Shown here: positions 3,940-41,150 of the stretch, piece by piece
How positions within the stretch are numbered: the first letter of the stretch is position 1
How the letters are laid out: the number at the start of each line of letters is the position of its first letter
Origin: Dehalococcoidia bacterium
GTDB taxonomy: Bacteria > Chloroflexota > Dehalococcoidia > Dehalococcoidales > JAUVZA01
Assembly (NCBI GenBank): GCA_030602805.1
Contig: JAUVZA010000002.1
Coordinates: forward strand, 1-47,159
DNA: 47,159 nt
Reading direction: 5' to 3'
The notes under the pieces: model-generated
What the model saw: the letters and a program-made list of their open reading frames with translations, nothing else
What the model was told of the DNA's origin: nothing
Databases searched by the model: none
Program-made: the position numbers and the translations under genes

Positions 3940-4292
3940 GGGGACGCGCGGGTTCGACAGGGGGAGTAGACTACTGGATTGCAAGCTGAGGTGCCACTAA
4001 CCTCATTAAACAAGTGGCAAAAAAATAACTGGCAAAGAACCAGTTTTCGCTGCCTAATTAAATAGGTAGCACATCCAACCTGACCCCACCTCAACGGGTT
4101 GGGATTGGGTGCCGAAAAGTTGAGGTGCCACTGCTCGGATGCCGATGAGAGCAGTGAAAGAATTATCGGCTGGCTTGGCTAAACTCGGTCAGTAGAGGCT
4201 AGCCAGGTAAGATAAAAGAGCTGACTAAGCTTGTAGTATATTCTGGGGAGCTTCCGCTGGACGGGGAGTTCGATTCTCCCCCGTCTCCACCA
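3940..4292 (+). ncRNA. ssrA: transfer-messenger RNA (tmRNA)
   Basis: 5' GGGGACGCGCGGGTTCGACAGGG pairs with 3' CGTCTCCACCA, including a G3:U pair. T-arm is GGAGTTCGATTCTCC. Length is 353 nt. Candidate tag ORF at 4031-4057 is GGC AAA GAA CCA GTT TTC GCT GCC TAA (GKEPVFAA). Confidence 0.9.
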
Positions 4293-5394
4293 GAGAATCA
4301 GCGGGTTCATGGCTTAAGCCGGAGCCCGTTCCTTTTTGCTTAATCAGCCGCAATGGTGAGTATCGCTCTAAAGCTTCCCGCAATTGAGGCATTGGGAATT
4401 TAATATAACGGTCGTTCTGGCCAGGAATCTTGTCTCTTATCAATCGCATGGCAATGAATTCATCGTTGCTCGCAGTTGCCACTAGAGTTGCGAATGACCG
4501 GCGCAAGTCATGGCCTGTAATCCCACTTATTCCAGCTCTGGCACACAGCCGGGCAACAAGCTGGGCCATGCCGTCTTCACCGAGCGGTTCCCTCTGCCCA
4601 CTACGAATTCTGTTGGCCAAGATTACGTGATCTTCAGGCTTAAGACCACGTGCCAATTCTTTTAGCCTTTCCTCAGTCTCGTGTAAAATGGGCGTCCATT
4701 CGTCGCGCTCCTTACCTCTACACCAAATCACCCCGTTCCTGATGCCAACGACATCACCAGCTAATATACGGCTAACTTCAACCTGCCGCCAGCCGTGCCC
4801 AAGCAGAAGATCCAAGCATACTCTTTCCCTCTTTGAATCTGGCGTATTATCTATCTCACGCACTTCTTCCAAAGAGAGTGTCTTAATCGGCCTTTTAGTT
4901 ACGATAGGCCTGTCAAGAACATCAAGAGGATTACTTGGCCAGCCGAAATTCATGACAGCGTGCTCGTATAGCATATGTAGAAGATCGTGATGGTTACGTT
5001 TATGTCGTCCAGTCTCACCATCGAATTGGTTAAGATAACTCATAATTGATTCGGGCTTTTCAGGTAACCATGTAAATGCTCTCTCGAATTGATTAAGTCT
5101 CTTCTTATAAGTTTTGTATGTATTTCCCTTTACTCGTTTATACGTTTTGAAGGCTAGGAAGCTATCAATCACATCGCGAGTCCGCAGCTGTTTATCGAAT
5201 CCTTTGTTTTTTGCAATTTCAGACAAGAGTAATTCTGGCCGGGGTTGCTTATCTTGTAGGTATTCCTGTGCTACTAACTGATGCTCACCCGTTTCTGCCT
5301 TTATTTTTCCTCCTCCCGGAACCTCAGCCTCTATATAAAGTGGCTTCACCGTCCATCGCACTTTTTCCTCTAATGGTTCCATTTGATCTCCCAT
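4225..5394 (-). CDS. tyrosine-type site-specific integrase (island integrase)
   Basis: Contains GWRQVEV, HDLRRSFAT and DRYIKF (catalytic Tyr). The last ~22 codons (SLVETGENRTPRP...) are encoded antisense to the tmRNA 3' end (4225-4292). Confidence 0.9.
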   Translation of the reverse strand: MGDQMEPLEEKVRWTVKPLYIEAEVPGGGKIKAETGEHQLVAQEYLQDKQPRPELLLSEIAKNKGFDKQLRTRDVIDSFLAFKTYKRVKGNTYKTYKKRLNQFERAFTWLPEKPESIMSYLNQFDGETGRHKRNHHDLLHMLYEHAVMNFGWPSNPLDVLDRPIVTKRPIKTLSLEEVREIDNTPDSKRERVCLDLLLGHGWRQVEVSRILAGDVVGIRNGVIWCRGKERDEWTPILHETEERLKELARGLKPEDHVILANRIRSGQREPLGEDGMAQLVARLCARAGISGITGHDLRRSFATLVATASNDEFIAMRLIRDKIPGQNDRYIKFPMPQLREALERYSPLRLIKQKGTGSGLSHEPADSLVETGENRTPRPAEAPQNILQA

Positions 5395-7400: not shown

Positions 7401-8168
7401 TTAGATATAACCAGAAACAGCAGCACTCCATCCTCCATCTATCGGTAGAATTACCCCGGTGATGAAACTGGCCTCATCTGATGTCAGGAAAACAGCTGCA
7501 TTGGCAATATCTTCAGGTGTAGCCATCCTCCCCAAAGGGGCACGCCTTTCAGATTCCTTGACGTTTATTACTCCCTTCTTAATGGAGTCCTTAATCAAAT
7601 CGGTCAGGACACCACCGGGAGCTATACAATTCACGTTAATATTATATTTGCCCCATTCCACGGCTAGGTCCTGGGTCATATTTATCACCGCCGCTTTTGA
7701 TGAGGCGTATGCACTACGCATAGGAACACCCCTCATGCCGGTAACTGAAGCGATATTGATGATTTTCCCCATCCGGTGAGCTATCATCCACTTCCCCACT
7801 TTCCGGCAACAGAGGTAAGTACCACGCAGGTTGATTGACATTATGCAGTCCCACATCTGTAGCGTTTGCTCTACAACAGGGGCAACCTGAAAAATACCAG
7901 CATTGTTGACCAGGATATGTATGCCACCGAGTTCATTGATTACCCTGTCTACCATCCTGTCAACTTGGTCTTCTTCAGACACATCAGCTTCTATGGCGAT
8001 AGCTTTTCGTCCCGTCTTTTTTATTGCCTCAGCTGTTCCTTCGGCAGAGGAGAGGTGGGCGGCATCCACCGCTACATCAGCCCCCTCTGCGGCAAGTGCC
8101 AGAGCTATGGCTCGACCAATGCCTCTTCCCGCTCCAGTAACCAAAGCGATCTTACCACTCAGTTTCAT
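7401..8168 (-). CDS. short-chain dehydrogenase/reductase (FabG-like)
   Basis: Contains TGAGRGIGRA, NNAG and YASSKAA. The ORF track starts at 8210, but MKLSGKIALVTGAG with a GGAGATGGGAGAA RBS fits the start at 8168. Confidence 0.9.
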   Translation of the reverse strand: MKLSGKIALVTGAGRGIGRAIALALAAEGADVAVDAAHLSSAEGTAEAIKKTGRKAIAIEADVSEEDQVDRMVDRVINELGGIHILVNNAGIFQVAPVVEQTLQMWDCIMSINLRGTYLCCRKVGKWMIAHRMGKIINIASVTGMRGVPMRSAYASSKAAVINMTQDLAVEWGKYNINVNCIAPGGVLTDLIKDSIKKGVINVKESERRAPLGRMATPEDIANAAVFLTSDEASFITGVILPIDGGWSAAVSGYI

Positions 8169-8356
8169 TTCTCCCATCTCCAGACTTGCCTTAGCAACCT
8201 CAGCCATCACCTCCTTTTTATTCTCTCCTAATCTCGAATACCAAGCACCGCTCCGTCCCGCTACCCAATCCCGGTGGCAGCCGCCCTCGCTCCCGAGTCA
8301 CGGGTTTCACAGAGATGAATCACGGTATCTCCGAGAAAGACAGCATGCTGACTCTA

Positions 8357-13570: not shown

Positions 13571-14536
13571 ATGCTAGAAGCCTTGATGCCAGCAAAAGAC
13601 GTAGGATATTTTAAAAAAGCGGCAGATGGTGGTGTTACAGCGATACATGCCACTTTACCATGGGTTACGGATGACCTTCCTGCTGCAATTAATAAGATAG
13701 CGCAATTTATGAAACTTGTAGAAAACACGGAAAATACGGAAATGGTCTCTACCGCAGCTGATATTGAAAAGGTGAAAAGGGAGGGAAAACTGGCAATAAT
13801 ACCGGGAATGCAAGACAGCATACCCTTTGAGAGGGACTTGGATCTGGTAAGAATTTTTCATAAGCTGGGCATCAGAGTAATGATGCCTGCTTATTCTAGG
13901 CAAAATTACCTCGGTGCAGGATGTGTTGAAGAGATAGACTATGGGCTAACAGCACAGGGTAAAAAAGCCGTAAAGGAATGGAACAAGTTAGGTATACTGG
14001 CAGATGTCTCTCACTGTGGCAATCAAACAGCGATTGATACAGCTGAGTGTTCAGAAGTCCCCATAGCAATCACGCATGCTACACCCTCAACCCTTGTCGA
14101 GATGAACAGAGCAAAAAGTGACGCTGCGATAAAGGCTGTGGCAGCAAAAGGTGGAGTCATAGGTCAGGTTGTCATGAGTGCTTTCTGCGAGAGAAGAGAT
14201 AAGATGGGGACGTGGCCGACTTTAGTCGACTTCGTCGACGTCATAGACTATCTAGTGAACTTGGTGGGGATTGACCACGTTGGTCTTGGCCTTGACCTGG
14301 TTCCGTTCTGGACGGCAAAGGAGTGGGACGCACCGGAGCATATGGATGTTGCAGCCGGCCTTGTGTATCCTCACAAGGAACCACCCTTTGAAAGGGTGTA
14401 TGTTCAAGGATTTAATGGTATCCAAGACACAATAAAAATCACTGAAGAGTTAGTGACACGTGGCTATTCCGATGACGACATAAAGAAGATACTGGGGGGT
14501 AACTGGCTGAGGTTGCTAAAGCAAGTCTGGAAATAG
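13571..14536 (+). CDS. membrane dipeptidase (peptidase M19) family protein, non-canonical N-terminus
   Basis: M19-like over its full length (HCGNQTAIDTAE, ITHATPS, GLGLD). The homologous region (ISERAQRIHKEAIVVDMLEAL) extends upstream of the first ATG. An AAAGGAGG RBS at 13501 has no ATG/GTG/TTG after it. Confidence 0.75.
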   Translation: MLEALMPAKDVGYFKKAADGGVTAIHATLPWVTDDLPAAINKIAQFMKLVENTENTEMVSTAADIEKVKREGKLAIIPGMQDSIPFERDLDLVRIFHKLGIRVMMPAYSRQNYLGAGCVEEIDYGLTAQGKKAVKEWNKLGILADVSHCGNQTAIDTAECSEVPIAITHATPSTLVEMNRAKSDAAIKAVAAKGGVIGQVVMSAFCERRDKMGTWPTLVDFVDVIDYLVNLVGIDHVGLGLDLVPFWTAKEWDAPEHMDVAAGLVYPHKEPPFERVYVQGFNGIQDTIKITEELVTRGYSDDDIKKILGGNWLRLLKQVWK

Positions 14537-14541
14537 GGAAA

Positions 14542-14706
14542 ATGAAACTGGGTGGTAAGGTCGCTATGGTTACTGGAGCGGGAAGAGGCATTGGTCGAGC
14601 CATAGCTCTGGCACTTGCTGCAGAAGGGGTCGATTTGGCAGTGAATGCCGCTCATCTCTCCCCTATGACCGACTGGAGCAACCCTGGCGAGACTGGGCAA
14701 AGATAG
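14542..14706 (+). pseudogene. truncated SDR (N-terminal 40 aa copy of the 7401..8168 gene)
   Basis: MKLGGKVAMVTGAGRGIGRAIALALAAEGVDLAVNAAHLS, then unrelated sequence and a stop. About 87 percent nucleotide identity to the reverse complement of 8050-8206. Confidence 0.8.
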
Positions 14707-15575: not shown

Positions 15576-15622
15576 GGCTGTTAACCGCTAGGTTGTAGGT
15601 TCGAGTCCTACCCGGGGAGCCA
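15576..15622 (+). pseudogene. tRNA-Asn(GTT) 3' fragment (anticodon loop to CCA), not a functional tRNA
   Basis: GGCTGTTAACCGCTAGGTTGTAGGTTCGAGTCCTACCCGGGGAGCCA. The upstream sequence lacks a D-arm and a 5' acceptor strand. Confidence 0.75.
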
Positions 15623-15660
15623 ACTCTCTCCCCTATACTGAAATACTGCTTGAATCGTGC

Positions 15661-16518
15661 ATGCAATTCCTATATCATACCTGTATCATGAGTAGTGAAG
15701 CAGGTGGCAGCCAACCAAACGCCTTTCCGAGTGTTCAGGAATTGTGCTTGAATGTCCCATTATTCGAATCTTTTCATATTGTTGATTCTGCAGCTGAAGA
15801 ATTTTATGACTTGGTTAAATTCAATGGACACATAGATTGTCATTGTCTAGAGTGTGGGCAACCAAGCATTTTTCATATTGTAGAGTTAAATGATTGGCCA
15901 TGGGGGCGCGGCGACCACCGACCACTGACACGTATTAATTATCTATTCGAATTTGCTTTCAATTGTTCTCGTAATGAGAGCCACAAGTTGATATTTTATT
16001 TTCGCCTTCATAATAGAAACTTCATGAAGATTGGCCAGTATCCAACAATTGCTGACCTATCTACTATAGAAGTACAGAAGTATAGAAAAGTATTAGGCGA
16101 GGAACTATATAAGGAATTTACACGTGCAATTGGTTTAGTCTCTCATGGGGTTGGGATTGGCGCTTTTGTGTATTTAAGAAGGATTTTTGAACATCTCATA
16201 GAAGAAGCACACCAGAAAAATGCCACTGCCGAAGGTTGGGATGAGGATACGTATAAGAAATCTCGAATGGACGATAAGATAGAGCTGCTGAAGGCTTCGC
16301 TTCCAGACTTCCTAGTTCGCAATAGGAAACTCTATTCAATCCTCAGCAAAGGCATACATGAGCTAGACGAGTCGATTTGTTTATCCGCCTTCCCTGTGAC
16401 AAGAGCAGGTATCGAAATGATTCTTGATGAGAGATTGAGAGAGATTGAGAAAGAGCAAAAGACTCAAGCTGTGGCAAAAGATATTGGCGAACTACACGAT
16501 AAGCTTAAGCCAACATGA
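15661..16518 (+). CDS. hypothetical protein with a possible N-terminal Cys/His cluster (CHCLECG)
   Basis: 285-aa ORF in AT-rich, island-like sequence. No family recognised with confidence. Confidence 0.55.
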   Translation: MQFLYHTCIMSSEAGGSQPNAFPSVQELCLNVPLFESFHIVDSAAEEFYDLVKFNGHIDCHCLECGQPSIFHIVELNDWPWGRGDHRPLTRINYLFEFAFNCSRNESHKLIFYFRLHNRNFMKIGQYPTIADLSTIEVQKYRKVLGEELYKEFTRAIGLVSHGVGIGAFVYLRRIFEHLIEEAHQKNATAEGWDEDTYKKSRMDDKIELLKASLPDFLVRNRKLYSILSKGIHELDESICLSAFPVTRAGIEMILDERLREIEKEQKTQAVAKDIGELHDKLKPT

Positions 16519-16810
16519 TGTCCGCCCTGGTGGGCGCGGGTATCTGCTTGAGGAAACGCCTCGCCAGGTAGGAGTAAAGCCTTATTGTCTTCTCCGCCTT
16601 GCGTTCTGCTTTCAGCTTGGTGATCCAGGGCTCGAGATTCTCAACTGGGAGCTTGTGGGCAACACTGATGGAGACGCCTTCTGCCTTCGCCAATCGCGAG
16701 ATGAGGGAGGCCACCAGAGCCCGAGTGTCTGGTTGCAGGCGGCATAGCTGGTCAACGGAGTGTTGGAGCCTGCTGTTGGCTGACTGAATTGCCTTCATTG
16801 CCTTAACCAT
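16505..16810 (-). pseudogene. N-terminal (core-binding/SAM-like domain) fragment of a tyrosine recombinase
   Basis: WITKLKAERKAEKTIRLYSYLARRFL is typical of the integrase N-domain. There is no catalytic domain, and the fragment overlaps the 3' end of the neighbouring gene. Confidence 0.5.
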
Positions 16811-16876
16811 AGTACTATTATGGCGTGAAATGGGTGATTTGTAAGCGGTGGGACTTAGAGTTAGGAGGAAAACATC

Positions 16877-17455
16877 ATGGCACTAATACCAGCTTTTGAG
16901 ATAGGTGTGTGGAATGCTTGGATTCTCATGTTGTATATTCCCTTGCACCCTCTTATTATGATGCCAATTGATAAATTGGTGGGCACCGGGGATATATTTA
17001 AAAAAATGGAAACTCCTAGTTTTACCAAGACTGAGAATATTACAAATATTTTAAGCAATTTTGTTGTATTGTTTGGACTCTTTATATACTCAATATTTTT
17101 GCCGTTACAATTAGGAACGATATGGTTTTATGTAGGGCTCGTTCTATGTGTATTAGGGGTGGTTACCTGGACGTTAGCTATAGCGAATATTGTCAATATC
17201 CCATTCGGTGAGCCGTGGAAGAAGGGGCTCTATCGATATTCAAGACATCCCATGACTCTCGCTTGTTATTTGATATTTATAGGTACAGGTATAGCTTCAG
17301 CCTCATGGATATTCTTATTGTTTTCAATCGTATATATAATTTTAGGAGCTATTCCCACAATTGCAGAAGAACGTTTCTGCCTTGATAAGTATGGTGATAC
17401 ATACCGTGAATACATAAATAGAACACCACGATGGATAGGGATACCCAAATCTTAA
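16877..17455 (+). CDS. isoprenylcysteine carboxyl methyltransferase (ICMT)/PEMT-family membrane methyltransferase, copy 1
   Basis: Multi-TM protein with YRYSRHPM...AEERFCLDKYGDTYREYINRTPRW. AGGAGG RBS. Confidence 0.8.
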   Translation: MALIPAFEIGVWNAWILMLYIPLHPLIMMPIDKLVGTGDIFKKMETPSFTKTENITNILSNFVVLFGLFIYSIFLPLQLGTIWFYVGLVLCVLGVVTWTLAIANIVNIPFGEPWKKGLYRYSRHPMTLACYLIFIGTGIASASWIFLLFSIVYIILGAIPTIAEERFCLDKYGDTYREYINRTPRWIGIPKS

Positions 17456-17480
17456 TTGACCAACAAAGGAGGTATTATCC

Positions 17481-17762
17481 ATGGCAAACTGTCTTAATCC
17501 TAAATCCCTTATTTGTCTTGACCGGAAATCCATAATCGATGCGGGCGGCTATCATCTATTTGGGTCCAGAATTTTTTCCGTTCTTGGTCTTGTGTTCGCT
17601 GTATTGGGGATTATTAGCGATGCTGCGAATGCTACTCTCGGCTTGGAGCCAATATCTTGGTTCCTGCTGGCAATTGGTGTTTCTGTAGTCGGCATAGCAC
17701 CTTGTATCGGCTGGGCGGTGGCTGTGTATCTCAAATCCATGGAAGCCAAGAAAGAGCAATAG
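17481..17762 (+). CDS. small 2-TM membrane protein, copy 1 (unknown family)
   Basis: AAGGAGG RBS. Reads MANCLNPKSLICLDRKSIIDAGGYHL... followed by two hydrophobic helices. It is 25 nt downstream of the ICMT gene. Confidence 0.65.
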   Translation: MANCLNPKSLICLDRKSIIDAGGYHLFGSRIFSVLGLVFAVLGIISDAANATLGLEPISWFLLAIGVSVVGIAPCIGWAVAVYLKSMEAKKEQ

Positions 17763-17882
17763 AATCCAGGTGAAGTAGTAGCTGCCTGAATTGCTTGCGT
17801 TGCCTTAACCATAGTATTATTATGGCGCAAAGAGGGGGATTTTTAAGCGCCTTTGGTGAAAATATGTTACAGGAGGTAAGCA

Positions 17883-18626
17883 GTGGAAGAGCAAACAGGA
17901 CAGCAGAAATTCGCAGTTCTAATAGATGGAGATAACGCCCAGGCATCCCTCCTCCCTCAGATCCTTGCTGAAGTTAGTAAGTTTGGTCTGATTACAATCA
18001 AGCGCATATATGGTGACTGGACTACTACTAACATGAACCAGTGGAGGGAGTCACTTCACAAGAACGCGATTCAACCTGAGCAACAGTTCAGGTATACCAT
18101 TGGAAAAAACGCAACCGATAGCGCCATGATAATAGATGCTATGGACTTATTGCATAGTAATAACGTCGAAGGCTTCTGTATCGTCTCCAGCGATAGTGAT
18201 TATACTCGCCTGGCAACTAGGATTCGAGAGGAAGGGCTCTTCGTCATAGGTGTGGGCGAGACTAGAACCCCAGAAGCTTTCAGGAATGCCTGTAACCAGT
18301 TCATATACTGTGAGAACCTTACCGAAGCCAAAGCACCGGCGAAAAAGACCAAGAAAACGAAGGGGACTCCCGATATGCCGGATCCTCTGCCCATTCTTAT
18401 AAAGGGATTTGAGATGGCCGCTAAAGAGGATGAATGGGCTTATTTGGCAGCGATTGGCAATAGCCTTCACCAGCTTGATCCAGCATTCGACCCTCGGACT
18501 TATGGTCATCAAAAACTACAGTCGCTACTTAAGGGATACCCAGAGACATTTGTGCTCAAACAGGATAGATCAAAGAAGCCACCGGTGGTTAATGTGGCAT
18601 TAACCCCTCAGTACAACAGAGGATAA
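17883..18626 (+). CDS. NYN (LabA-like) ribonuclease domain protein with a C-terminal OST-HTH/LOTUS domain
   Basis: FAVLIDGDNA...IYGDW...GKNATDSAMIIDAMD...IVSSDSDYTRLATRIRE. C-terminal WAYLAAIGNSLHQLDPAFDPRTYGHQKL. Confidence 0.85.
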   Translation: MEEQTGQQKFAVLIDGDNAQASLLPQILAEVSKFGLITIKRIYGDWTTTNMNQWRESLHKNAIQPEQQFRYTIGKNATDSAMIIDAMDLLHSNNVEGFCIVSSDSDYTRLATRIREEGLFVIGVGETRTPEAFRNACNQFIYCENLTEAKAPAKKTKKTKGTPDMPDPLPILIKGFEMAAKEDEWAYLAAIGNSLHQLDPAFDPRTYGHQKLQSLLKGYPETFVLKQDRSKKPPVVNVALTPQYNRG

Positions 18627-18666
18627 TTCACGCTCGTATGTTTACGCATACTGGCTAGCGTCGCAC

Positions 18667-18706
18667 AACCGCTAGGTTGTAGGTTCGAGTCCTACCCGGG
18701 GAGCCA
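18667..18706 (+). pseudogene. tRNA-Asn 3' fragment, second copy
   Basis: AACCGCTAGGTTGTAGGTTCGAGTCCTACCCGGGGAGCCA is identical to 15583-15622. Confidence 0.75.
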
Positions 18707-18799
18707 ATTTAATCTCTGGAGTGATACAATTAATATACATAATATGGCATTGGACCAGTTAGTACTATAAATTGTAGCCCACTATAAGAACCATGTCAT

Positions 18800-21709
18800 T
18801 TACGACTCTAGACCATACCTCTTTGCTCTCGTGATAAACGCTTCCTCTCCTCCCTCCATAATCTCGATAACGGCGCGAACAATAGCCTCCTTATCGATAC
18901 ATCCACGTTCTCTAAGTATACCCCTACTGTCGCTCAGTGCATCAAGGACTATCACCTGCTCAGCATCACCCGAGACAACGATATTTGGGTTATGGGTTGC
19001 CACGATGATTTGCCGCTTTTCTTTAAGATTTTTTAGGATGTCAACCAGCATTTTCCCGACTAGACGGTTGTCGAGATTATCTTCAGGCTGATCAATAATA
19101 AGAGGAATGTCTTCCACTAAGACAATAAGGGGGAGCATTGCGCTTGACCTTTGACCCGGTGATAATCCTTCAACAGCACGCCCATTGAGTAGAATACCCT
19201 CATCATCATCCCATTCCGTCTCTGCCATGTGCAGTATTTTCCCTAACTTCACCTTGTCTATAATTGGAACATCTGCATCAGAATCATGAGCAAATGGAAA
19301 TGTCGTCGAGGTGATTCCCTCTGCCATGCCTTCATCTACACCCATTTCTTGCCCATTAATGGTAAAACTCGACACCAATTTCGTGTGTTCTTTAGCTAGT
19401 AATGCTTCGGCCATTTCTATTGGACTACAGCTCAGGCTGAAACGCTCAGGCCAGAGGTTTGCCCGCCAGTGTCCGTGTAAATCTCCACTAAATATCCCGC
19501 TACTGTACAAATGGGCAATAAATTTTTCTCGATCTTGTCCTTGTCGGAATCGAAGCGAAATCTCCATTTCAGGTGTACTAAACTTATTAAGCTCGCTTTC
19601 AATTTCTTCTTTTCGCTTTAATCTTCTTTCGCTAATTTCACCCTGGATATCCTGGAGCGTATGAGCTATACCTTTCCATTCCGCTAATAGCGCCTCGAAT
19701 TCACTCCATGCTTCTATATACTCCCGCCTAAGGCCAGTTGCTTGCCTAAGTCTCTCGTCTGCTAGTCTACGTAATTCAGCTGCCGTCTGTTTCGTAGCCT
19801 CTTCACCGATTCTATCTCTAAGATCCTTTTCCTTTCCTTGCAGTTCCTCGTTTACTGTTCTAATCTCGCTCTGCAATTCCCCAGATATTGTCCTCAACAT
19901 CTGCATACCTGCTTCAAAGTGTTTAGTGGCTTCAGATATTTTCCCTTTAAGTTGATCGCGCCTAGGAGATTTATCCCACCAGTCATTAAGTACATCTTTT
20001 AATTCCTTACTTAATTCATCTATTCCAGGAATTATATCAATTTCCACTCTCTCTGATAATTTATTTAGCCAATCTTGAAGATCACCATCTATTTTCTTTA
20101 GTATTGACTCTTTTGCTTTTGCTATATCAATATCCCTGAATAAATCCTTTATCTCGACTGTATTGAGTTTATCAAAGTCAGATTGGTACTCTTTATACCT
20201 TTTGATTTCGCCCCCATTTCTTCCCATAACTGTTTCTAGTTTCGTGACTGCAGCAGCTATTTCTGCCCTTTTCCCTCTAATCATTAGTCTAACTTCGTCA
20301 CGTTTCTCGCTTGCTTGCTGAAATTCTGGGATTAATCTGTCAAGAAGCTCCCTCTGCCGACCTGCCTCCCTCCCTAGCGTCTCGATTTCACTCCACCCGA
20401 ATAACCTAACAGGATAGTTAGTCTCAATATTATGAATCTCTCGCACGTTTCCGTTTGCATCATAGACCCGCGTTGTACAGTCCTGCTTATTATCAAAGAT
20501 GCTCTCGAGTATATGATGCTCACCGTCCTCAGCTACATATACGAGTCGCATTACACAATCTGTTAAAGTAGCTCGCTGTAAACTCCGTGCTTTAGCGGCT
20601 AATTCTGCACCTGCCTTTTCCATTTCATTCAGATGTTTATTCTGGTCGAACATATATCGAAGTGATTCAATGATTGTGGATTTACCTGATCCCCGTGGCC
20701 CTATCATACATGTTAGATTATCGGAGAAGGCTACTCCGATATTCTCAAAAAAGCCGCTCTCACTTCCAGCAACAATTTCCATACCCAGAATTCGTGGGCA
20801 TGGCTTGGCGGGGACATCACTCGGAAACCTAATCCGTGTCTCTGCAAATCTCAGCGCTTGAACAAGATCTTCGAAACATACTGATGCCATCTTGATATAA
20901 GTTACTCTCTCCTGCGAATCAAGATCTTCTATACAATGGGCATCACCTTTCAGCAAAACGGCTATGCTCGTCTTCCGTCCGGTTATTTCGCTAACCCAAC
21001 AGTAATGCTCCTTATCGCTGCTCTTAGCCACTTCTATACCATCGAATCCTGCCGATAGTATCCAATCCTTGAATAATTCTGAAATACGCTTTTCTTCACC
21101 CGTCGATAGTTCTCCATTCGGTGCACAGAAAGTAATCCCGTCTCTTCCTAATTGTCTAAAAGTTCTTCGAGCTCCTCTGTCCGTGTCTATATGTGCCGCT
21201 ATGCATATCCCTCCACAATTGTGAATAACATCAACGAAGTCCTTAATTTGCCCAATTTCCTTTATCTCTTCATTACCTACCCGAGACTTCTCTTCGGGAA
21301 TGTACTGCGGTAGTATCCGGCAAATCCGTTCATGTGGTAACTTTTCCGGAAAGATTCCTAATATGTGAATACGAAAAGCATTAAGTGGGGGAGATGGTCG
21401 AATGTTTATTTCCATTCCAGGTAAAACGCATATACTGCTAGAAGTTAAAGTGTCTGATGCGCGACAAGCTAACCCGCATTTCATATGATCCGTTATCGCT
21501 ACCATATCTAGGTTGCTTTTAACAAGCTCAGCAAGGTATTCTTGTTCACTCTTAGCGTGCATTCCCTTACAATCAGTACCGCTTGCTGCGAAGGTCCTGC
21601 CATAGTCTGGACTGTCTGGGGAATGAGAATGAAGTACTACCTTACGAAAAAGCCCTACATCTTGCCTGTGCTCTTCTAATCGCCTTAATAATTCTGTATA
21701 ACCCGCCAT
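18800..21709 (-). CDS. PHP-domain phosphoesterase fused to an SMC/Rad50-like coiled-coil ABC ATPase (969 aa)
   Basis: PHP motifs: H27-x-H29, D74-H75, E100, H173, D256-x-H258. Walker A is GPRGSGKST (337-345). A charged heptad-rich region spans ~455-715. Then LSPGQR (849-854), Walker B LIIDQPED (869-876) and ATHNPN (~904-909). GGAGGGAAGA RBS. Confidence 0.8.
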   Translation of the reverse strand: MAGYTELLRRLEEHRQDVGLFRKVVLHSHSPDSPDYGRTFAASGTDCKGMHAKSEQEYLAELVKSNLDMVAITDHMKCGLACRASDTLTSSSICVLPGMEINIRPSPPLNAFRIHILGIFPEKLPHERICRILPQYIPEEKSRVGNEEIKEIGQIKDFVDVIHNCGGICIAAHIDTDRGARRTFRQLGRDGITFCAPNGELSTGEEKRISELFKDWILSAGFDGIEVAKSSDKEHYCWVSEITGRKTSIAVLLKGDAHCIEDLDSQERVTYIKMASVCFEDLVQALRFAETRIRFPSDVPAKPCPRILGMEIVAGSESGFFENIGVAFSDNLTCMIGPRGSGKSTIIESLRYMFDQNKHLNEMEKAGAELAAKARSLQRATLTDCVMRLVYVAEDGEHHILESIFDNKQDCTTRVYDANGNVREIHNIETNYPVRLFGWSEIETLGREAGRQRELLDRLIPEFQQASEKRDEVRLMIRGKRAEIAAAVTKLETVMGRNGGEIKRYKEYQSDFDKLNTVEIKDLFRDIDIAKAKESILKKIDGDLQDWLNKLSERVEIDIIPGIDELSKELKDVLNDWWDKSPRRDQLKGKISEATKHFEAGMQMLRTISGELQSEIRTVNEELQGKEKDLRDRIGEEATKQTAAELRRLADERLRQATGLRREYIEAWSEFEALLAEWKGIAHTLQDIQGEISERRLKRKEEIESELNKFSTPEMEISLRFRQGQDREKFIAHLYSSGIFSGDLHGHWRANLWPERFSLSCSPIEMAEALLAKEHTKLVSSFTINGQEMGVDEGMAEGITSTTFPFAHDSDADVPIIDKVKLGKILHMAETEWDDDEGILLNGRAVEGLSPGQRSSAMLPLIVLVEDIPLIIDQPEDNLDNRLVGKMLVDILKNLKEKRQIIVATHNPNIVVSGDAEQVIVLDALSDSRGILRERGCIDKEAIVRAVIEIMEGGEEAFITRAKRYGLES

Positions 21710-21867
21710 TCTTCCCTCCTATTTGGGTCTGCATACTTGCTATGTTTTAGAAAGCACCAACCCATATTCGCTATATACGAGAATTAGGGTATAATTTTCG
21801 CATACAGTATCGTTAATACTTACTCCGGGAGATAGGTGCCAAGCGTATTTATATATGCTCGCTCCAC

Positions 21868-21979
21868 AAGCCCCACGACGCGAAACGGGGCTTGCCTGAC
21901 TTTTAATAAGTGTCATACGCCTCGCGACCCAACCTTCAAGTACTTCACTATCGGGCGGGGCGCCACATCAAGAATCTGG
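21868..21979 (+). repeat. ~110-nt repeat family 2, copy 1
   Basis: AAGCCCCACGACGCGAAACGGGGC...GTGTCATACGCCTCGCGACCCA...GGGCGGGGCGCCAC...AGAATCT. Related copies lie at 36439-36497 and 38092-38201. Confidence 0.75.
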
Positions 21980-23935: not shown

Positions 23936-24351
23936 ACCAATTTCCCTCCTTTGTGTATATGTATTTCCTCCCCTTTATTAGGAGAAATTGCCTATCTGCC
24001 CAGTCATGCGTTATCAACAATTAGGTAGAATTGTTGAGGCATATTCCCCTATGGCTGGTGGAGGAGACCGTACAAATATTAATCCTTGCTTTCTACTCAT
24101 TGCCGGCCTTACCCTCTTTGTTCGTTAACTGGAGGACAACTTCTCGCAGCTTGTCGGGGCGATGACCATTACCTCCAAGGGTCAGATTAAGCTGCTGTGC
24201 TAACTGTCCCAGGACAACAAGGTGGTCCAATAGATGTGGCAATAGTTGTGTGGGATCATCTTCGAGATATAGTTTAGAAGCATTAGGGTAACCGATAGCA
24301 AAAAGCTTGTTCAGGTAGCTGAGGTTACGTTCTAGCGAACTATCTGTGCAT

Positions 24352-24385
24352 GGCGGGGGGGTTCGACCCTCCCCCGTCTCCACCA
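24352..24385 (+). repeat. displaced copy of the ssrA 3' end (island att core)
   Basis: GGCGGGGGGGTTCGACCCTCCCCCGTCTCCACCA. The last 17 nt (24369-24385) are identical to tmRNA 4276-4292. Confidence 0.85.
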
Positions 24386-36303: not shown

Positions 36304-36438
36304 GACTTTCTCCTATTCTGGGAGTACGTATTTGCACAAATTATCATAATTATACAATAAGGTCACAAATCGTCAGAATATTCAATAAAGGAACGATTTT
36401 AGACACGCAGAAGCGCCCTGATCCCGGCCCTGCCCCAC

Positions 36439-36497
36439 GAGCCCCACGCCGCGAAACGGGGCCTGCCGGGACTCAAATGAGTGCCATACGCCTAAGC
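36439..36497 (+). repeat. repeat family 2, partial copy 2
   Basis: AGCCCCACGCCGCGAAACGGGGCCTGCC...GAGTGCCATACGCCTAAGCGA. Confidence 0.65.
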
Positions 36498-36550
36498 GAT
36501 TGGACAGCCGACTCGAGTTCTTCGTTGCCCCTGCCGTTCAGTCTACCTGC

Positions 36551-36579
36551 TTGCATCTCCTGCCTGCATGTAATATTAT
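36551..36579 (+). promoter_or_regulatory. promoter TTGCAT-N17-TATTAT upstream of ICMT cassette copy 2
   Basis: TTGCAT at 36551-36556 and TATTAT at 36574-36579. The -10 element and the following ~35 nt are conserved with 16814-16860 and 17813-17860. Confidence 0.5.
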
Positions 36580-36631
36580 GGCGTGAAGGGGGGTTGTAAG
36601 CGGTTGAACCCAGGGCAAGGAGGAACATATC

Positions 36632-37201
36632 GTGTCGGCTATACCAGCATTTGAGATTGGTGTCTGGAACGTCTGGATTTTCGTGATTTGGCTACTAATA
36701 CCTTTTTTCTTGGGACCTTTAGGTATAATTCCTAAGGGTCGAGAGGAGGGGAGCGATTTTACCGCTGAGTTCAATAAGATGCAGAAGATTGCAATCCTTT
36801 CTCTCCATGTGATCTTTCCCCTCCTGATTATATATTCCATTTTCGTACCGTTAAGATTGGGTACAGTGTGGTTTTATGCAGGCCTTCCTATTTATTTATT
36901 AGGTTTAACCACGTATATAATGGTTTTTGTGGGTTTTGCCACTACGCCACCTGACGAGCTCGTTACCAAGGGAATATATCGCTATTCAAGAAATCCAATG
37001 CAACTCTCCATATTTATACTCCTCGTAGGGGTGGGCATAGCTACATCTTCCTGGGTTTTCTTGTTGCTTTCCGCAGCATATATGACTATACCGCTCCTTT
37101 GGTTAAATGCCGAAGAACAACACTGCCTCAAATTCTACGGCGATGCCTATCGTGAATACACGAATAAAACGCCAAGGTGGATAGGGATACCAAAATCTTA
37201 A
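36632..37201 (+). CDS. ICMT/PEMT-family membrane methyltransferase, copy 2
   Basis: Paralogue of 16877..17455 (MSAIPAFEIGVWNVW..., YRYSRNPM, AEEQHCLKFYGDAYREYTNKTPRW). GTG start after AAGGAGG. Confidence 0.8.
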   Translation: MSAIPAFEIGVWNVWIFVIWLLIPFFLGPLGIIPKGREEGSDFTAEFNKMQKIAILSLHVIFPLLIIYSIFVPLRLGTVWFYAGLPIYLLGLTTYIMVFVGFATTPPDELVTKGIYRYSRNPMQLSIFILLVGVGIATSSWVFLLLSAAYMTIPLLWLNAEEQHCLKFYGDAYREYTNKTPRWIGIPKS

Positions 37202-37225
37202 ATTCAAAGGAAGGAGGTATATATT

Positions 37226-37507
37226 ATGGCGAGCTGTCTTAATCCTAAGTCCCCCATTTGTCTTGACCCAAAATCCATAATCGATGCGGGTGGCTATCAT
37301 CTATTGGGGTCTAGAATTTTTTCCGTTCTGGGTCTTATATTCGCTATATTAGGGGTTATTAGTGATGCCATGAACGCGACTCTAGGCTTGGAACCAATAT
37401 CTTGGTTCCTGCTGGCAATTGGTGTTTCTGTAGTCAGCATAGCACCTTGTGTTGGCTGGGCGGTGGCTGTATATCTCAGGTCTATAGAGGCTAAGAAGGA
37501 GCAATAG
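37226..37507 (+). CDS. small 2-TM membrane protein, copy 2
   Basis: About 85 percent aa identity to 17481..17762 (MASCLNPKSPICLDPKSIIDAGGYHL...). Confidence 0.65.
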   Translation: MASCLNPKSPICLDPKSIIDAGGYHLLGSRIFSVLGLIFAILGVISDAMNATLGLEPISWFLLAIGVSVVSIAPCVGWAVAVYLRSIEAKKEQ

Positions 37508-37733
37508 AATCTAGGTGAAGTAGTAGCTACCTGAATTGCCTTATAAAACTTCTTACTATCCTCAAACCTCACCGACCTTGTGTATCGCTCTACTTGGCCA
37601 GTGATTCCCACCCACCCAGGTCTTTGATGTATGGTTGTGCTAAGTATTATTTTAATAGATTTAAACGAAGTATTGACAGTAGGCCCTATTGGGATTAGTA
37701 TAACCAATAAATTAGATTATAGAGGTGATTAAC

Positions 37734-37985
37734 ATGGCAGAAATTCCAGACGACGTGAAGCGACATCTATTCGAGAGAAACCCAATGTTATGTTTGTGGA
37801 TGAACGGCATCTTAACCTACTTGGGCGTTGCGTTTATGGTGATTGGCATTGTTAGCGATGCCATGAATAAGGTGCTAGGTTTGGAGCCCACTAATTGGTT
37901 CATCATGGCGGTCGGATTTTGGATGCTAGGCATCTTTGCATGGTTCAGGGGATACTACTCAGCAAAGGAAAAGCTAGATTGGTGA
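37734..37985 (+). CDS. small 2-TM membrane protein, distant third paralogue
   Basis: AGAGGTGA RBS before ATG 37734. It shares GIVSDAMNKVLGLEPTNWFIMAVG with the other two (GIISDAANATLGLEPISWFLLAIG) but lacks the Cys-containing N-terminus. Confidence 0.55.
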   Translation: MAEIPDDVKRHLFERNPMLCLWMNGILTYLGVAFMVIGIVSDAMNKVLGLEPTNWFIMAVGFWMLGIFAWFRGYYSAKEKLDW

Positions 37986-38091
37986 GCCATAAACCAAGAT
38001 TCTAAGGCTGTTAGATTCTCACTTGACACTGCTGGCTCCTCACAATGAATTATACCATCAGGTAAGGTATAAAGTAATACCCTATGTCCAT

Positions 38092-38201
38092 AAGCCCCAC
38101 GCCGCGAAACGGGTCACACTAGGGCTCAGACGAGTGCCATACGCCTCACGACCCAGCCTTTGCGCACTTCCCTATTGGGCGGGGCGCCACGTTGAGAATC
38201 T
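38092..38201 (+). repeat. repeat family 2, copy 3
   Basis: AAGCCCCACGCCGCGAAACGGG...GAGTGCCATACGCCTCACGACCCAGCCTT...GGGCGGGGCGCCACGTTGAGAATCT. Confidence 0.75.
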
Positions 38202-38714: not shown

Positions 38715-40055
38715 TCAACCTTCTTCCCCTTTTTCCTTCCCCTGCCGCCAGGCTTTGAGCCGAGCTATAACCTGTTTCTCGTATCCCTGGTCAGTCGGAG
38801 TGTAGTAGCGTTTGCCCTGAAGGGAGGCAGGAAGGTTTTGTTGTTCAACGAAGTGCCCGGGGTAGTCATGAGCATATTTATATCCTTTGCCATAGCCTAT
38901 GTCTTTCATTAGCTGTGTCACCGGATTGCGCAAATGTAGAGGCACTGACTCGCTGGAGCCGTATTTAATCTCCTTCTGAACCCGGGAGTATGCCTGATAC
39001 AAGGAGTTGCTCTTAGGGGCTGTAGCCAGGTAGACGGCTGCCTCAGCCAGAGCCAGGTTGCCCTCAGGCATGCCGATGAAGTGAACCGCCTGCTGAGCTG
39101 CCATAGCTACTACCAGTGCCTGAGGGTCAGCCATACCGACATCCTCTGAGGCGAAGCGAACTAAACGGCGGGCAATGTAAAGCGGGTCTTCTCCTGCCTC
39201 TAGCATCCTTACCAGCCAGTAGAGGGAGGCATCCGGGTCTGAGCCTCGCAGCGATTTGTGAAGGGCTGAGATGATGTCATAGTGTTGCTCTCCCGCTTTG
39301 TCATAACGCAAAGCCCGGTGCTGGACAGCATCTTCAATAGTGGGCAGTGAGATATGGCGCTTTCCATCCGCATCAGGAGAGGTAGCCAAGGTTGCCATCT
39401 CCAGGGCGTTGAGGGCAATTCGGGCATCTTTATTTGACATAGTGATAAGATGGAGCATGGCATCATTATCCAGCTCCACATTCAATGCGCCCAGACCCTC
39501 CAGTCTATCTCTTAATGCTCTGATGATAATAATGCGAATCTCCTCCTCGGTAAGGGGATTCAGGGTTAAAACCTGGCACCGGGAGAGGAGAGGAGAGATA
39601 ACCTCAAAGGAAGGATTTTCCGTAGTAGCGCCAATGAGGGTAATCGTGCCATCCTCAACGAAGGGTAGAACTGCATCCTGCTGAGCTTTATTAAAGCGAT
39701 GAATCTCGTCTATGAACAGGATGGTTTTCTGCTGGTAGAGTTTACGGCGTTCCCTAGCCTCTTCAATTATCCGCCGAAGGTCAGCCACGCCAGCGCTGAC
39801 AGCACTCACCGGGCTGAAGTGTGAATCAGTGGCATTGGCGATAATATAAGCCAATGTAGTTTTACCACTGCCGGGTGGACCCCACAGGATGATTGACGGC
39901 AGTTGCCCAGCTTCAATAACCTTCCTCAGCACACGTCCCCCGCTTATCAGGTGCTCCTGCCCGACAAAGTCATTGAAGGTGGCCGGTCTCATCCGGGCTG
40001 CCAGCGGCGCCTCCTCTTTTATCTGTTCCTCAAGTTTATGCTCAAACATATCCAT
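38715..40055 (-). CDS. rarA: replication-associated recombination protein A (AAA+ ATPase RarA/MgsA)
   Basis: GPPGSGKTTLA, FIDEIHRFNKAQQDAVLP and the MgsA C-terminal domain (HYDIISALHKSLRGSDPDASLYW). Confidence 0.95.
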   Translation of the reverse strand: MDMFEHKLEEQIKEEAPLAARMRPATFNDFVGQEHLISGGRVLRKVIEAGQLPSIILWGPPGSGKTTLAYIIANATDSHFSPVSAVSAGVADLRRIIEEARERRKLYQQKTILFIDEIHRFNKAQQDAVLPFVEDGTITLIGATTENPSFEVISPLLSRCQVLTLNPLTEEEIRIIIIRALRDRLEGLGALNVELDNDAMLHLITMSNKDARIALNALEMATLATSPDADGKRHISLPTIEDAVQHRALRYDKAGEQHYDIISALHKSLRGSDPDASLYWLVRMLEAGEDPLYIARRLVRFASEDVGMADPQALVVAMAAQQAVHFIGMPEGNLALAEAAVYLATAPKSNSLYQAYSRVQKEIKYGSSESVPLHLRNPVTQLMKDIGYGKGYKYAHDYPGHFVEQQNLPASLQGKRYYTPTDQGYEKQVIARLKAWRQGKEKGEEG

Positions 40056-40172
40056 AATGCACCTGCTTCAAGGTTAGATTAAGCTCTTTTATTATAGTTT
40101 ATTAACCTCACATTTTAAATTATTTCAAGGGGAAAACTGTGAAGTAGAAAACCCTCAAAGTGAGGCGACCGT

Positions 40173-40853: not shown

Positions 40854-40887
40854 TAATGACCCCTTTTAATTATTTACTTTCCCATGC

Positions 40888-41051
40888 CGGCAGTTGCCCA
40901 GCTTCAATAACCTTCCGCAGCACACGTCCCCCCGCTTATCAGGTGCTCCTGCCCGACAAAGTCATTAAAGGTAGCCGGTCTCATCCGGGCTGCCAGTGGC
41001 ACCTCCCCTTTTATCTGCTCCCTAGATTTATGCTCAAACATATCCATAATG
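40888..41051 (-). pseudogene. duplicated 5' fragment of rarA (first ~55 codons, frameshifted)
   Basis: About 163 nt with roughly 90 percent identity to 39897-40059, including the start codon. There is a 1-nt insertion (C6 versus C5) at about 40927. Confidence 0.85.
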
Positions 41052-41057
41052 TACCTT

Positions 41058-41150
41058 CTTTATTATCTACCTCATCCCCTGTGTCCCCCTCTCCTTCAAA
41101 GGAGAGGGGGAGGTTATGGGAGAGGGGCTTTGCCCCTCTTAAACTCCCCT
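41058..41150 (-). repeat. G-rich hairpin-cluster repeat (family 1), copy D, inverted orientation
   Basis: The reverse complement gives AAGAGGGGCaaaGCCCCTCT, CCCCCTCTCCTTtgaAGGAGAGGGGG and the tail ACACAGGGGATGAGGTAGATAATAA. Confidence 0.7.

Follow-up and report, generated by a model that had tools for sequence, protein, structure and literature searches.

The 47,159-nt stretch of DNA analysed here (the window: contig JAUVZA010000002.1 of the Dehalococcoidia bacterium assembly GCA_030602805.1) contains, at two places about 20 kb apart on the one contig, a two-gene unit encoding a predicted membrane methyltransferase and a small membrane protein. We favour, with a probability of roughly 0.55, the reading that this gene pair is cargo of decayed tRNA-Asn integrative elements, that the repeated sequence beside it (element P) is the promoter and start of the integrase gene of such elements, that copy 1 of the unit forms one of two tandem modules and that copy 2 belongs to another element. 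This reading is carried by the direct repeats around copy 1, the origin of these repeats in an integrase gene, the recurrence of P and of the whole layout in other genomes, and the native context of the gene pair. The coordinates of all features are collected in Table 1.

The direct repeats on the two sides of copy 1 (DR-L and DR-R) align over 69 nt with 84% identity; a preliminary description of this DNA, made from the letters alone, had noticed them at a length of about 47 nt, so that their presence stands and their extent does not. The same description had taken the minus-strand open reading frame (ORF) that starts in DR-L for a tyrosine-recombinase stump, and this was borne out: the ORF shares 56–76% identity with the N-termini of the integrase relatives P0001–P0004 (75% with P0001), and the precomputed Pfam column lists PF00589 and PF02899 for three of the four (P0001, 343 aa; P0002, 241 aa; P0003, 355 aa), the domain build of P0001–P0003 being an ordinary PF02899/PF13495 plus PF00589. 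Homology of the stump covers residues 1–135 of P0001 with one TAA inside, and the scrap in DR-R begins with MVKATQAIQ, nine residues identical to the start of P0001. Judged by these alignments, the stump is a true tyrosine-recombinase N-terminus and the repeated element derives from the 5′ end of the integrase gene. At its full length of 343 aa the remnant would end about 160 nt from the left tRNA-Asn repeat, and orf285 appears to have replaced the integrase body. The product of orf285, which overlaps the integrase remnant antisense, has a Cys/His-rich stretch and matched nothing in Pfam or NCBIfam; near-identical pieces of it occur in other marine-sediment runs.

The C-terminal half of the integrase (int(C)) was found by tblastn neither in the window nor elsewhere in the genome, searches of a collection of genome contigs with the stump and with an integrase alignment gave no match, and a search for the integrase in metagenome contigs returned two distant loci only. 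Directly beside the P of copy 2, a shorter and decayed remnant was matched by blastp-short, among seven subjects, to P0003 (E = 0.001) and to the integrase of the closed genome CP070842.1 (E = 0.006). On the DNA level, the alignment of the left flank of copy 2 anchored to the start part of the direct repeat was matched by 160 and 302 of 20,000 random genomic segments; an unanchored local alignment was marginal (136 and 208 of 3000) and differed in register from the anchored one.

Repeats and a second copy of this kind could also be chimeric joins of strain variants made during assembly or binning. The source is a 104-contig metagenome-assembled genome (MAG) with 4.4% contamination, and the Logan contigs of the probable source run break at 17661–17678, where the copies share words. 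These independent contigs nevertheless bridge both repeats with 0 mismatches (15594–17678 and 17661–18696), so that the repeat structure is real DNA and not an artefact of the contig; variants of copy 2 lie on separate Logan contigs of the same run, copies 1 and 2 differ by 21% and are separated by 20 kb of a single contig, and the same layout occurs in a closed genome. We consider an artefact very improbable.

Element P consists of a promoter-like CTTACA-17-CATAAT directed toward the integrase and, after it, the first integrase codons, about 60–70 nt in all, and its promoter-like site ends 6 nt before the integrase ATG. A promoter scan of positions 16600–18000 returned two sites only, both on the minus strand and inside the repeats (16845 to 16817 and 17846 to 17819); from this placement we infer promoter activity for P. 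A pattern of 31 nt derived from three copies of P (mismatches: 0 in DR-L, 1 in DR-R) occurs exactly in CP070842.1 and JBARQF010000224.1 and, with up to three mismatches, at 18 sites in 12 of the 363 genomes of the order, where the reversed pattern had 0 sites. Most copies carry ATGCAAG about 20 nt past the −10 box, which is the integrase start codon in several relatives. The conserved leader of the preliminary description is indeed shared by both copies of the unit. It is not, however, an mRNA leader of the cassette but the integrase-proximal, promoter-like half of P, which also stands beside unrelated genes and tRNA-Asn, and neither leader nor tail was present at the nucleotide level beside the gene pair in other genomes. 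A structured RNA leader, for which covariation across copies had been proposed as a check, was rejected: RNAalifold predicted 0 pairs on either strand of 17 P copies, and the Rfam families in the window are tmRNA and tRNA only. As neither strand gave a fold shared by the copies, P is regarded as a DNA-level element.

Outside the window, the surroundings of P were compared at 16 loci. At four of them P is followed by integrase homology, in the form of a full 310-aa integrase at L056 and of remnants at L049, L054 and L061, and short integrase scraps were recognized by eye at L047, L058 and L062. A gene with NYN and LOTUS domains diverges from P at six loci (L046, L050, L051, L053, L055 and L057), with 75–84% identity to the NYN-LOTUS gene of the window, and tRNA-Asn sequence lies 44–57 nt beyond P at four (L050 to L053). 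P is also located upstream of flavin adenine dinucleotide (FAD) amine-oxidase and zinc alcohol dehydrogenase (Zn-ADH) genes. In the reading we prefer, P would occupy the point from which the first cargo gene diverges on one side, with the integrase or the tRNA-Asn attachment (att) site on the other.

The closed genome CP070842.1 (Dehalococcoidales bin10; G130) contains the layout of the window twice. Read in integrase orientation, the window has an att fragment, NYN-LOTUS (reverse), P, the small gene and the enzyme gene (reverse), P and the integrase remnant; the first G130 locus has an att fragment, CN-hydrolase, P1, FAD amine oxidase, P2 and a 222-aa integrase remnant, with P1 and P2 forming a 57-nt repeat of 91% identity, and the second has an att fragment, four small genes, a P that breaks off within the −10 box, a paralogous FAD oxidase, P and an integrase scrap. 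Another P of this genome, the fifth, stands at the head of a Zn-ADH gene and of a 24-codon integrase scrap. At the second locus (L043, 5046–6173), the integrase scrap is followed by serine-recombinase pieces (Pfam Recombinase and Zn_ribbon_recom), and by these domain matches a second type of recombinase has landed in the same slot.

In the window, both P-headed modules lie in a 3.1-kb islet with the order orf285, integrase stump, P, methyltransferase and small gene, P, NYN-LOTUS, tRNA-Asn fragment. The repeats at its borders share 40 nt at full identity with the 3′ end of the genome's real tRNA-Asn(GTT) gene (C54:10868–10942). Direct repeats of the 3′ end of the target RNA gene likewise stand at the borders of L042, L053 and both G130 loci, and an integrase relic (16409–16810) lies next to a border of the islet. 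Between the methyltransferase and NYN units there is no tRNA-Asn sequence, only the 69-nt repeat, in contrast to L042, where the units are separated by an att repeat. Because two P-headed modules, P-methyltransferase-small gene and P-NYN/LOTUS-att, adjoin head to tail inside the islet, we regard the 69-nt direct repeat as a module boundary. The modules lie beside the integrase stump, and their boundary would have arisen by recombination in or beside the integrase 5′ end, either because two related elements accreted in tandem and the body of the inner integrase was then lost, all but 10 codons, or because a P-carrying circle was inserted. Copy 2 would be a second, more decayed element, consisting of integrase remnant, P, enzyme gene, small gene, tail and a 17-nt scrap.

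Table 1 Features of the two units, the islet and their surroundings in the window
Feature	Position	Strand	Description
Left tRNA-Asn 3′-end repeat	15583–15623	+	41 nt, from just after the anticodon to CCA+1; att-type islet boundary
orf285	15661–16518	convergent to integrase	285 aa; sits where the rest of the integrase gene would be
Tyrosine integrase 5′ remnant	16409–16810	−	open ORF 16505–16810, 101 codons; homology past the TAA to 16409
Left direct repeat DR-L	16779–16847		integrase codons 1–11, start codon, element P (core 16816–16846)
PEMT/ICMT-superfamily membrane methyltransferase 1	16877–17455	+	192 aa; Pfam PEMT 34.9 bits
Small membrane protein sm1	17481–17762	+	93 aa; two hydrophobic spans; N-terminal CLNPKS..CL..GGYHL motif; without Pfam/NCBIfam match
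Shared 35-nt tail, copy 1	17763–17797		its final ~17 nt (GCTGCCTGAATTGCTTG) form the far end of the repeated integrase-start element
Right direct repeat DR-R	17781–17849		10-codon integrase-start scrap MVKATQAIQA and P (17818–17848)
NYN + OST-HTH/LOTUS gene	17883–18626	+	Pfam NYN 1.5e-35, OST-HTH 8.5e-14; second P-headed module
Right tRNA-Asn 3′-end repeat	18667–18707	+	41 nt; 100% identical to the left copy
Decayed integrase 5′ remnant by copy 2	36473–36556	−	27 codons, MQAGRLNGRGNEELESAVQSLRRMALI and stop; directly beside the P of copy 2
Third copy of P ("leader" of copy 2)	36574–36601	−	spacer 3 nt shorter; not promoter-like in the scan
PEMT/ICMT-superfamily methyltransferase 2	36632–37201	+	189 aa; Pfam PEMT 48.6 bits; paralogue group differs from that of enzyme 1
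Small membrane protein sm2	37226–37507	+	93 aa; 87% identity to sm1
Tail of copy 2	37508–37542		ends in 17-nt integrase-start scrap GCTACCTGAATTGCCTT (37526–37542); similarity to copy 1 ends there
Third, diverged small-protein paralogue	37725–37985	+	86 aa; preceded by a TTGACA-17-TAGTAT site

The NYN-LOTUS modules form a recurrent pattern of their own. Sequence like the 3′ half of tRNA-Asn follows the NYN gene by 7–45 nt in seven of the seven modules, the window included, and in L042 (2681–3738), a locus identical with L051, tRNA-Asn is followed after 53 nt by P and NYN-LOTUS and, 7 nt farther on, by a 40-nt tRNA-Asn 3′-end repeat, past which lie a similar spacer, a diverged P and another gene. 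NYN-LOTUS, P and the tRNA-Asn half make up a unit of roughly 0.9 kb, with a full tRNA-Asn 44–57 nt beyond P in at least four of the seven genomes. This unit may be a widespread integrase-less mini-island; alternatively, the RNase-like protein and the tRNA-half-like sequence in it may belong together functionally.

The distribution of P can also be viewed in another way, with P as a portable promoter or operator for cargo, foremost for NYN-LOTUS, and not as part of an integrase; its copies would spread by homologous recombination or gene conversion and act as short homology arms through which the genes between them are exchanged, with no site-specific recombinase involved. P precedes NYN-LOTUS in seven genomes, with a core gene on its other side in L046 and L057 (prephenate dehydrogenase and RF-1), lies 30–100 nt upstream of each cargo start and contains TATTAT in its plus-strand form; its spacer variants, in the alignment of copies, do not track cargo type, and the mosaic divergence of the units points to recombination between copies. 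The better promoter match, however, is on the integrase strand, where the −35 and −10 boxes are 17 nt apart and the ATG lies 6 nt downstream, and ATGCAAG stands after most copies even where the integrase is gone. P abuts tRNA-Asn att sequences too, and stretches of 31–69 nt at 84–91% identity are short for RecA-dependent exchange. We regard spread of P in this manner as doubtful.

The occurrence of the unit in two places, its ORFs and the gaps between the enzyme and small genes (25 nt in copy 1, 24 nt in copy 2) were as originally described, both in the ORF listing and by BLASTN, which aligned 17222–17794 with 36968–37539 (79% over 577 nt) and, as a second block, 16812–16930 with 36570–36685 (75%). 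The similarity extends over approximately one repeat period (about 985 of 1002 nt), and its boundaries in both copies fall within the repeated recombinase-start element, in agreement with the coincidence that the preliminary description had proposed to examine by BLASTN. The 35-nt tail that it reported at the end of both copies differs at three positions. The recombinase-start scrap that it placed at the right end of copy 2 is present, but with a length of only about 17 nt and no similarity in the flank beyond it, where 2008 of 3000 and 2986 of 3000 random genomic windows scored equally.

DR-L, DR-R and the right end of copy 2 all contain this core of about 17 nt (as GCTGCCTGAATTGCTTG; pattern GCT(G/A)(A/C)CTGAATTGC(C/T)T). 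DR-L is built of integrase body, core and start-P, DR-R of tail, core and start-P, and the right end of copy 2 of tail, core and unrelated sequence; the three sites have only these ~17 nt in common, with unrelated sequence on one or both sides. Core-like sequence is located on both sides of copy 2 (CTACCTG-CTTGC and CTACCTGAATTGC). No dyad symmetry was apparent in the core by eye, nor any resemblance to the tRNA-Asn att sequence, the BLAST matches of whose fragment were its own copies only. The hairpin of the tails is weak and no better than in shuffled sequences (z = −1.26 and −0.71), an attC-like fold of the tails as single-stranded DNA was not found on either strand (z = −1.26, −1.07, −0.71 and +0.13 against shuffles), and window scans reported no terminator-like or inverted-repeat site at the tails.

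The main alternative takes these ~17 nt for the attachment core of a site-specific cassette system, located within the first ~11 integrase codons. A small circle made of core, integrase start, P and cargo would insert at a resident core, land between the old P and the integrase body and restore the integrase with its own P and start codons; the outcome would be an integron-like array in which each cassette carries a copy of the integrase 5′ end, akin to the "suicidal" arrangement of the SSV (Sulfolobus spindle-shaped virus) type, which exists in archaea according to PMC7253208. It would account for three sites that share the core alone, for a match between copies 1 and 2 that spans about one repeat period and for core-like sequence on both sides of copy 2, although the two flanks of copy 2 are not significantly similar to each other (3218 of 20,000 random segments score equally). 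Short integrase-start stumps are common beside P (4, 4, 5, 10, 24, 27, 27, 135 and 172 codons, counted by eye from printed sequences), and those of L046 and L057, which belong to different families, break off at an identical ATGCAAGCGCCCAT, after which each runs on into another core gene. The stump lengths are not uniform, however, and a dead integrase that erodes progressively until a selected promoter is reached leaves short stumps too. At the two homologous loci of G130 the junction from cargo to repeat is placed differently (62 nt past the stop, with five stump codons, in one; P cut inside the −10 box in the other), which argues against one fixed crossover point and looks like deletion, and the junction shared by the two ICMT copies may be inherited. 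The core is without visible dyad symmetry or likeness to the tRNA-Asn att, the C-terminal half of the integrase is missing at the other border, and the contigs show neither a circle nor an empty-site joint. We consider a cassette system of this kind rather unlikely.

L051 and L023 also bear on it, as both read tRNA-Asn in the same frame (WLPELDSN.. and WLPDKDSN..). In L051 (~1532–1660, in integrase orientation), a Shine–Dalgarno sequence and ATG past P open a frame that reads MIRKGNT-WLPELDSNQQPSG into tRNA-Asn, and in L023 (1459–1560) the tRNA-Asn fragment is read in that frame (WLPDKDSNLEPSG) straight into the integrase body. These frames are a weak hint that the att core might be translated as part of the integrase in one lineage, as in the archaeal SSV type. 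A broader version holds that Dehalococcoidales have a bacterial counterpart of the archaeal suicidal integrases, with the core in the first integrase codons and with the NYN-LOTUS/tRNA-Asn mini-units as a sister version that uses a tRNA-Asn core; small circles with one or two cargo genes would insert at the core, and each insertion would rebuild the integrase with the incoming 5′ end and leave the old promoter-plus-start stump as a cassette boundary. This broader version we judge unlikely.

The integron-like geometry that the preliminary description had seen in copy 1 does recur, with different genes, at the two G130 loci, but without an attC-like fold, with at most two units and with differing junctions; the observation itself is confirmed, and its interpretation is partly supported.

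To return to the reading as cargo of decayed tRNA-Asn elements, several points weigh against it. The assignment of P as a promoter is an argument from placement and not from count, because the two sites found, which are matches to a consensus only, do not exceed the 3.0 expected from shuffled sequences. No excision joint, circle or empty site was seen when contigs (not reads) were compared with the locus; a single skip joint (15620 to 17816, run X2) has a short side of 34 letters and fits a relative with tRNA-Asn-P-NYN, and runs X2, X4 and X5 otherwise hold merely short, diverged pieces of orf285, the enzyme gene and the NYN gene. No intact element of this build was seen, the integrases beside P in the window and in G130 all being stumps. 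Integrase relatives without P adjoin RNA-gene fragments as well: the 276-aa integrase of L023 is preceded at 50 nt by a tRNA-Asn fragment, and tRNA-like or tRNA-Met sequences are associated with L024 to L029. In the tRNA-Met-linked relatives the promoter has the att fragment upstream of it, so that the integrase family is heterogeneous. Accretion followed by deletion needs at least two events, and the 17-nt end shared by both copies needs a common ancestor that already bore it.

The divergence of the two copies adds a further point of this kind. The relatedness of the copies noted in the preliminary description holds for the small proteins, with 87% protein identity (synonymous divergence dS 0.41, nonsynonymous divergence dN 0.067, dN/dS 0.17), and far less for the enzymes, which share only 46% identity with a saturated dS of 1.6 (4.8 in the middle third). 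Since the enzyme genes are saturated and the small genes are at dS 0.41, the small gene and the tail share a far more recent ancestor than the 5′ part, and by these distances the copies are mosaics with a complex history beyond a single duplication.

To analyze the native context of the gene pair, we compared 29 loci of other genomes carrying the small-protein family, which is present in 47 of the 363 genomes of the order. The genes ftsK and/or uvrB lie within 1.5 kb at 17 of these loci, and a PEMT-like gene is found directly upstream of the small gene at five and within 650–680 nt at two more. Neither an integrase homologue nor P was found at any of the 29, contrary to the association with recombinases for which the preliminary description had proposed to search other genomes. 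The pair is widespread in Dehalococcoidia and is not generally mobile. In the closest reference-genome relative (G132), the enzyme is accompanied by a protein of the 93-aa type without the tail. The ftsK–uvrB interval of the source genome contains other genes and no such pair, and this, together with the core-gene context in relatives, is the basis on which we propose that the pair was captured into island DNA from a chromosomal locus, which in relatives lies between uvrB and ftsK.

Both enzymes pass the cut-off of 25 bits of Pfam PEMT (PF04191), with 34.9 and 48.6 bits, and enzyme 1 has 5565 homologues at E ≤ 1e-10, the best 120 at 72–85% identity, with Ste14/ICMT-family as source names and mostly from Dehalococcoidia. 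The enzyme family resembles Methanosarcina ICMT (PDB 4a2n) in being polytopic and about 190 aa long and in its C-terminal S-adenosylmethionine (SAM)-binding block (RHPMY...EE...FG..Y..Y), which is aligned when the family profile is compared with 4a2n (E = 3.8e-14). Unlike such characterized families, the enzymes of the window lie far below every NCBIfam equivalog cut-off, with 44.6 and 39.7 against 160 for the protein-S-isoprenylcysteine O-methyltransferase NF040696, 30.6 against 325 for LmtA and 29.9 against 270 for MddA; the cut-off of 24 for PF04140 was not reached by enzyme 2 (17.7 bits), and enzyme 1 had no match. These scores place the enzyme among the SAM-dependent membrane methyltransferases of the PEMT/ICMT superfamily, and we assign no substrate to it because family scores so far below the equivalog cut-offs do not allow one to be inferred.

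The small ORF is conserved as a protein, as the preliminary description had supposed, with 102 related clusters in its family and the low dN/dS given above. It had no match in Pfam or NCBIfam, and in the protein atlas it was related to Chloroflexota clusters only. The conserved N-terminus of the CLNPKSxICLD type claimed for it holds for the 93-aa subfamily, in which CLNPKS..CL..GGYHL was found in 27 of 35 aligned relatives, and not for the wider family, the motif being missing from seven of nine family members of an alignment set. The C-terminus ends in ...EAKKEQ and has no CaaX-like Cys. To our knowledge, bacteria lack CaaX prenylation. A role of the N-terminus as a general modification substrate was set aside as speculation, the motif being limited to a subfamily and a PEMT gene standing directly upstream at 5 of 29 loci. 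Adjacency in this minority of genomes is the sole hint that suggests a functional link between enzyme and small protein; a prediction of their complex returned no answer (score 0.00) and weighs neither way. Homologues of the small protein with 44–50% identity over ~60 residues, without a PEMT-like neighbour, occur in two Bathyarchaeia MAGs (L013 and L014).

The islet is nested in a larger island at the ssrA gene. The tmRNA occupies 3940–4292, its 3′ end is overlapped by a tyrosine integrase gene (4225–5391, minus strand), and a 35-nt repeat of the tmRNA end (24351–24385, 86%) 20 kb downstream defines an ssrA island of ~20 kb, whose cargo includes MttB/corrinoid genes, the tRNA-Asn islet and a PHP-SMC gene. 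The latter (18800–21709), beside the islet, encodes a 969-aa PHP-SMC-like ATPase in which only SMC_N/AAA domains were seen. A 161-nt inverted repeat with 88% identity (8046–8206 and 14504–14664), one arm of which is a short-chain dehydrogenase gene start and the other a second, truncated copy, brackets 6.3 kb with the genes for an MttB-like methyltransferase and a corrinoid protein. Farther along, direct repeats of 48 and 132 nt (96% and 91%) at 39894–40068 and 40885–41060, 991 nt apart, lie near RarA and Met_synt_B12-like genes.

An intergenic repeat specific to this genome, with the hairpin AGCCCC-N12-GGGGCT, occurs in the window at 21861–21977, 36432–36493 and 38085–38201 and elsewhere in C54 (8733–9914), C57 and C95; its longer copies (for example 21909–21977 and 38133–38201) have ~60 conserved nt after the hairpin. 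Copies stand behind many genes and on both sides of the copy 2 region, and they look like repetitive extragenic palindromic elements or terminators. This family (D4; 36432–36493 and others) was rejected as an island end, being a hairpin-type intergenic repeat found behind many genes.

The uncultured Dehalococcoidales of marine sediments have streamlined genomes, into which genes are thought to flow largely via islands at tRNA and tmRNA genes. The 31-nt core of P with its ATGCAAG start can serve as a marker in searches for small cargo modules of their integrative elements. Equivalent slots with copies of the integrase 5′ end as their frame hold units of one or two genes with unrelated functions: the membrane methyltransferase with its small neighbour, NYN-LOTUS, FAD amine oxidase, CN-hydrolase and Zn-ADH. 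If these framing repeats are real recombination sites, they would represent a new build of cassette array and the first bacterial att site inside an integrase gene; if Dehalococcoidales do possess the counterpart of archaeal suicidal integrases outlined above, this would be an integron-like platform for gene capture whose recombination site is the integrase's own 5′ end; and if the repeats are mere relics of accretion and deletion, the window would represent ordinary, if tidy, island decay.

In integrons, gene units that point away from a tyrosine recombinase gene are added at its 5′ end. Each cassette has at its 3′ end an attC site, made of imperfect inverted repeats that fold in single-stranded form, the cassettes have no promoters of their own and are expressed in arrays from a common one (Pc), and the integrase is of the IntI type, with a characteristic insertion near the catalytic domain. 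The loci described here resemble them in having units beside the 5′ end of a tyrosine recombinase gene that face away from it, and unrelated cargo in equivalent slots across genomes. Unlike integrons, they show no attC-like folded site, as judged by the folding of the tails against shuffles, each unit has a promoter-like P of its own instead of a single Pc, there are at most two units per array in the window and at the G130 loci, and the arrays end in a tRNA-Asn att fragment. The integrase relatives are of the ordinary PF02899 plus PF00589 build, and only the N-terminal 135 residues remain in the window.

For Dehalococcoides, PMC3146451 describes tandem ssrA islands, integrase-less "cis-mobilizable" islands and accretion, and cites the ICESt1/CIME concept. 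As in the islands described there, units here are stacked at the 3′ end of an RNA gene with end repeats as boundaries (24351–24385, and the repeats starting at 15583 and 18667), some units lack an integrase (tRNA-Asn-P-NYN-att in L042), and integrases are decayed. In contrast to that account, the methyltransferase unit is bounded by an integrase promoter and first codons and not by an att repeat, units are one or two genes long, and the recombinase belongs to the tyrosine integrases, unlike the integrase described in that account (DsiB), a serine recombinase.

SSV-type integrases have attP inside the integrase ORF and are described in PMC7253208 as so far restricted to archaea; in the model given there, tandem integration would rebuild an intact gene, and such tandems are stated to be unobserved for suicidal integrases. 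Set against that description, the candidate core here lies in codons ~6–11 and not in mid-gene, no matching int(C) stump was found at the opposite border, and stump lengths vary. The likeness to it consists in N-terminal integrase stumps with a promoter at unit borders and a candidate core in the first codons: int(N)-like stumps are present at P loci, and in another genome (L023) an att fragment is in frame with the integrase body.

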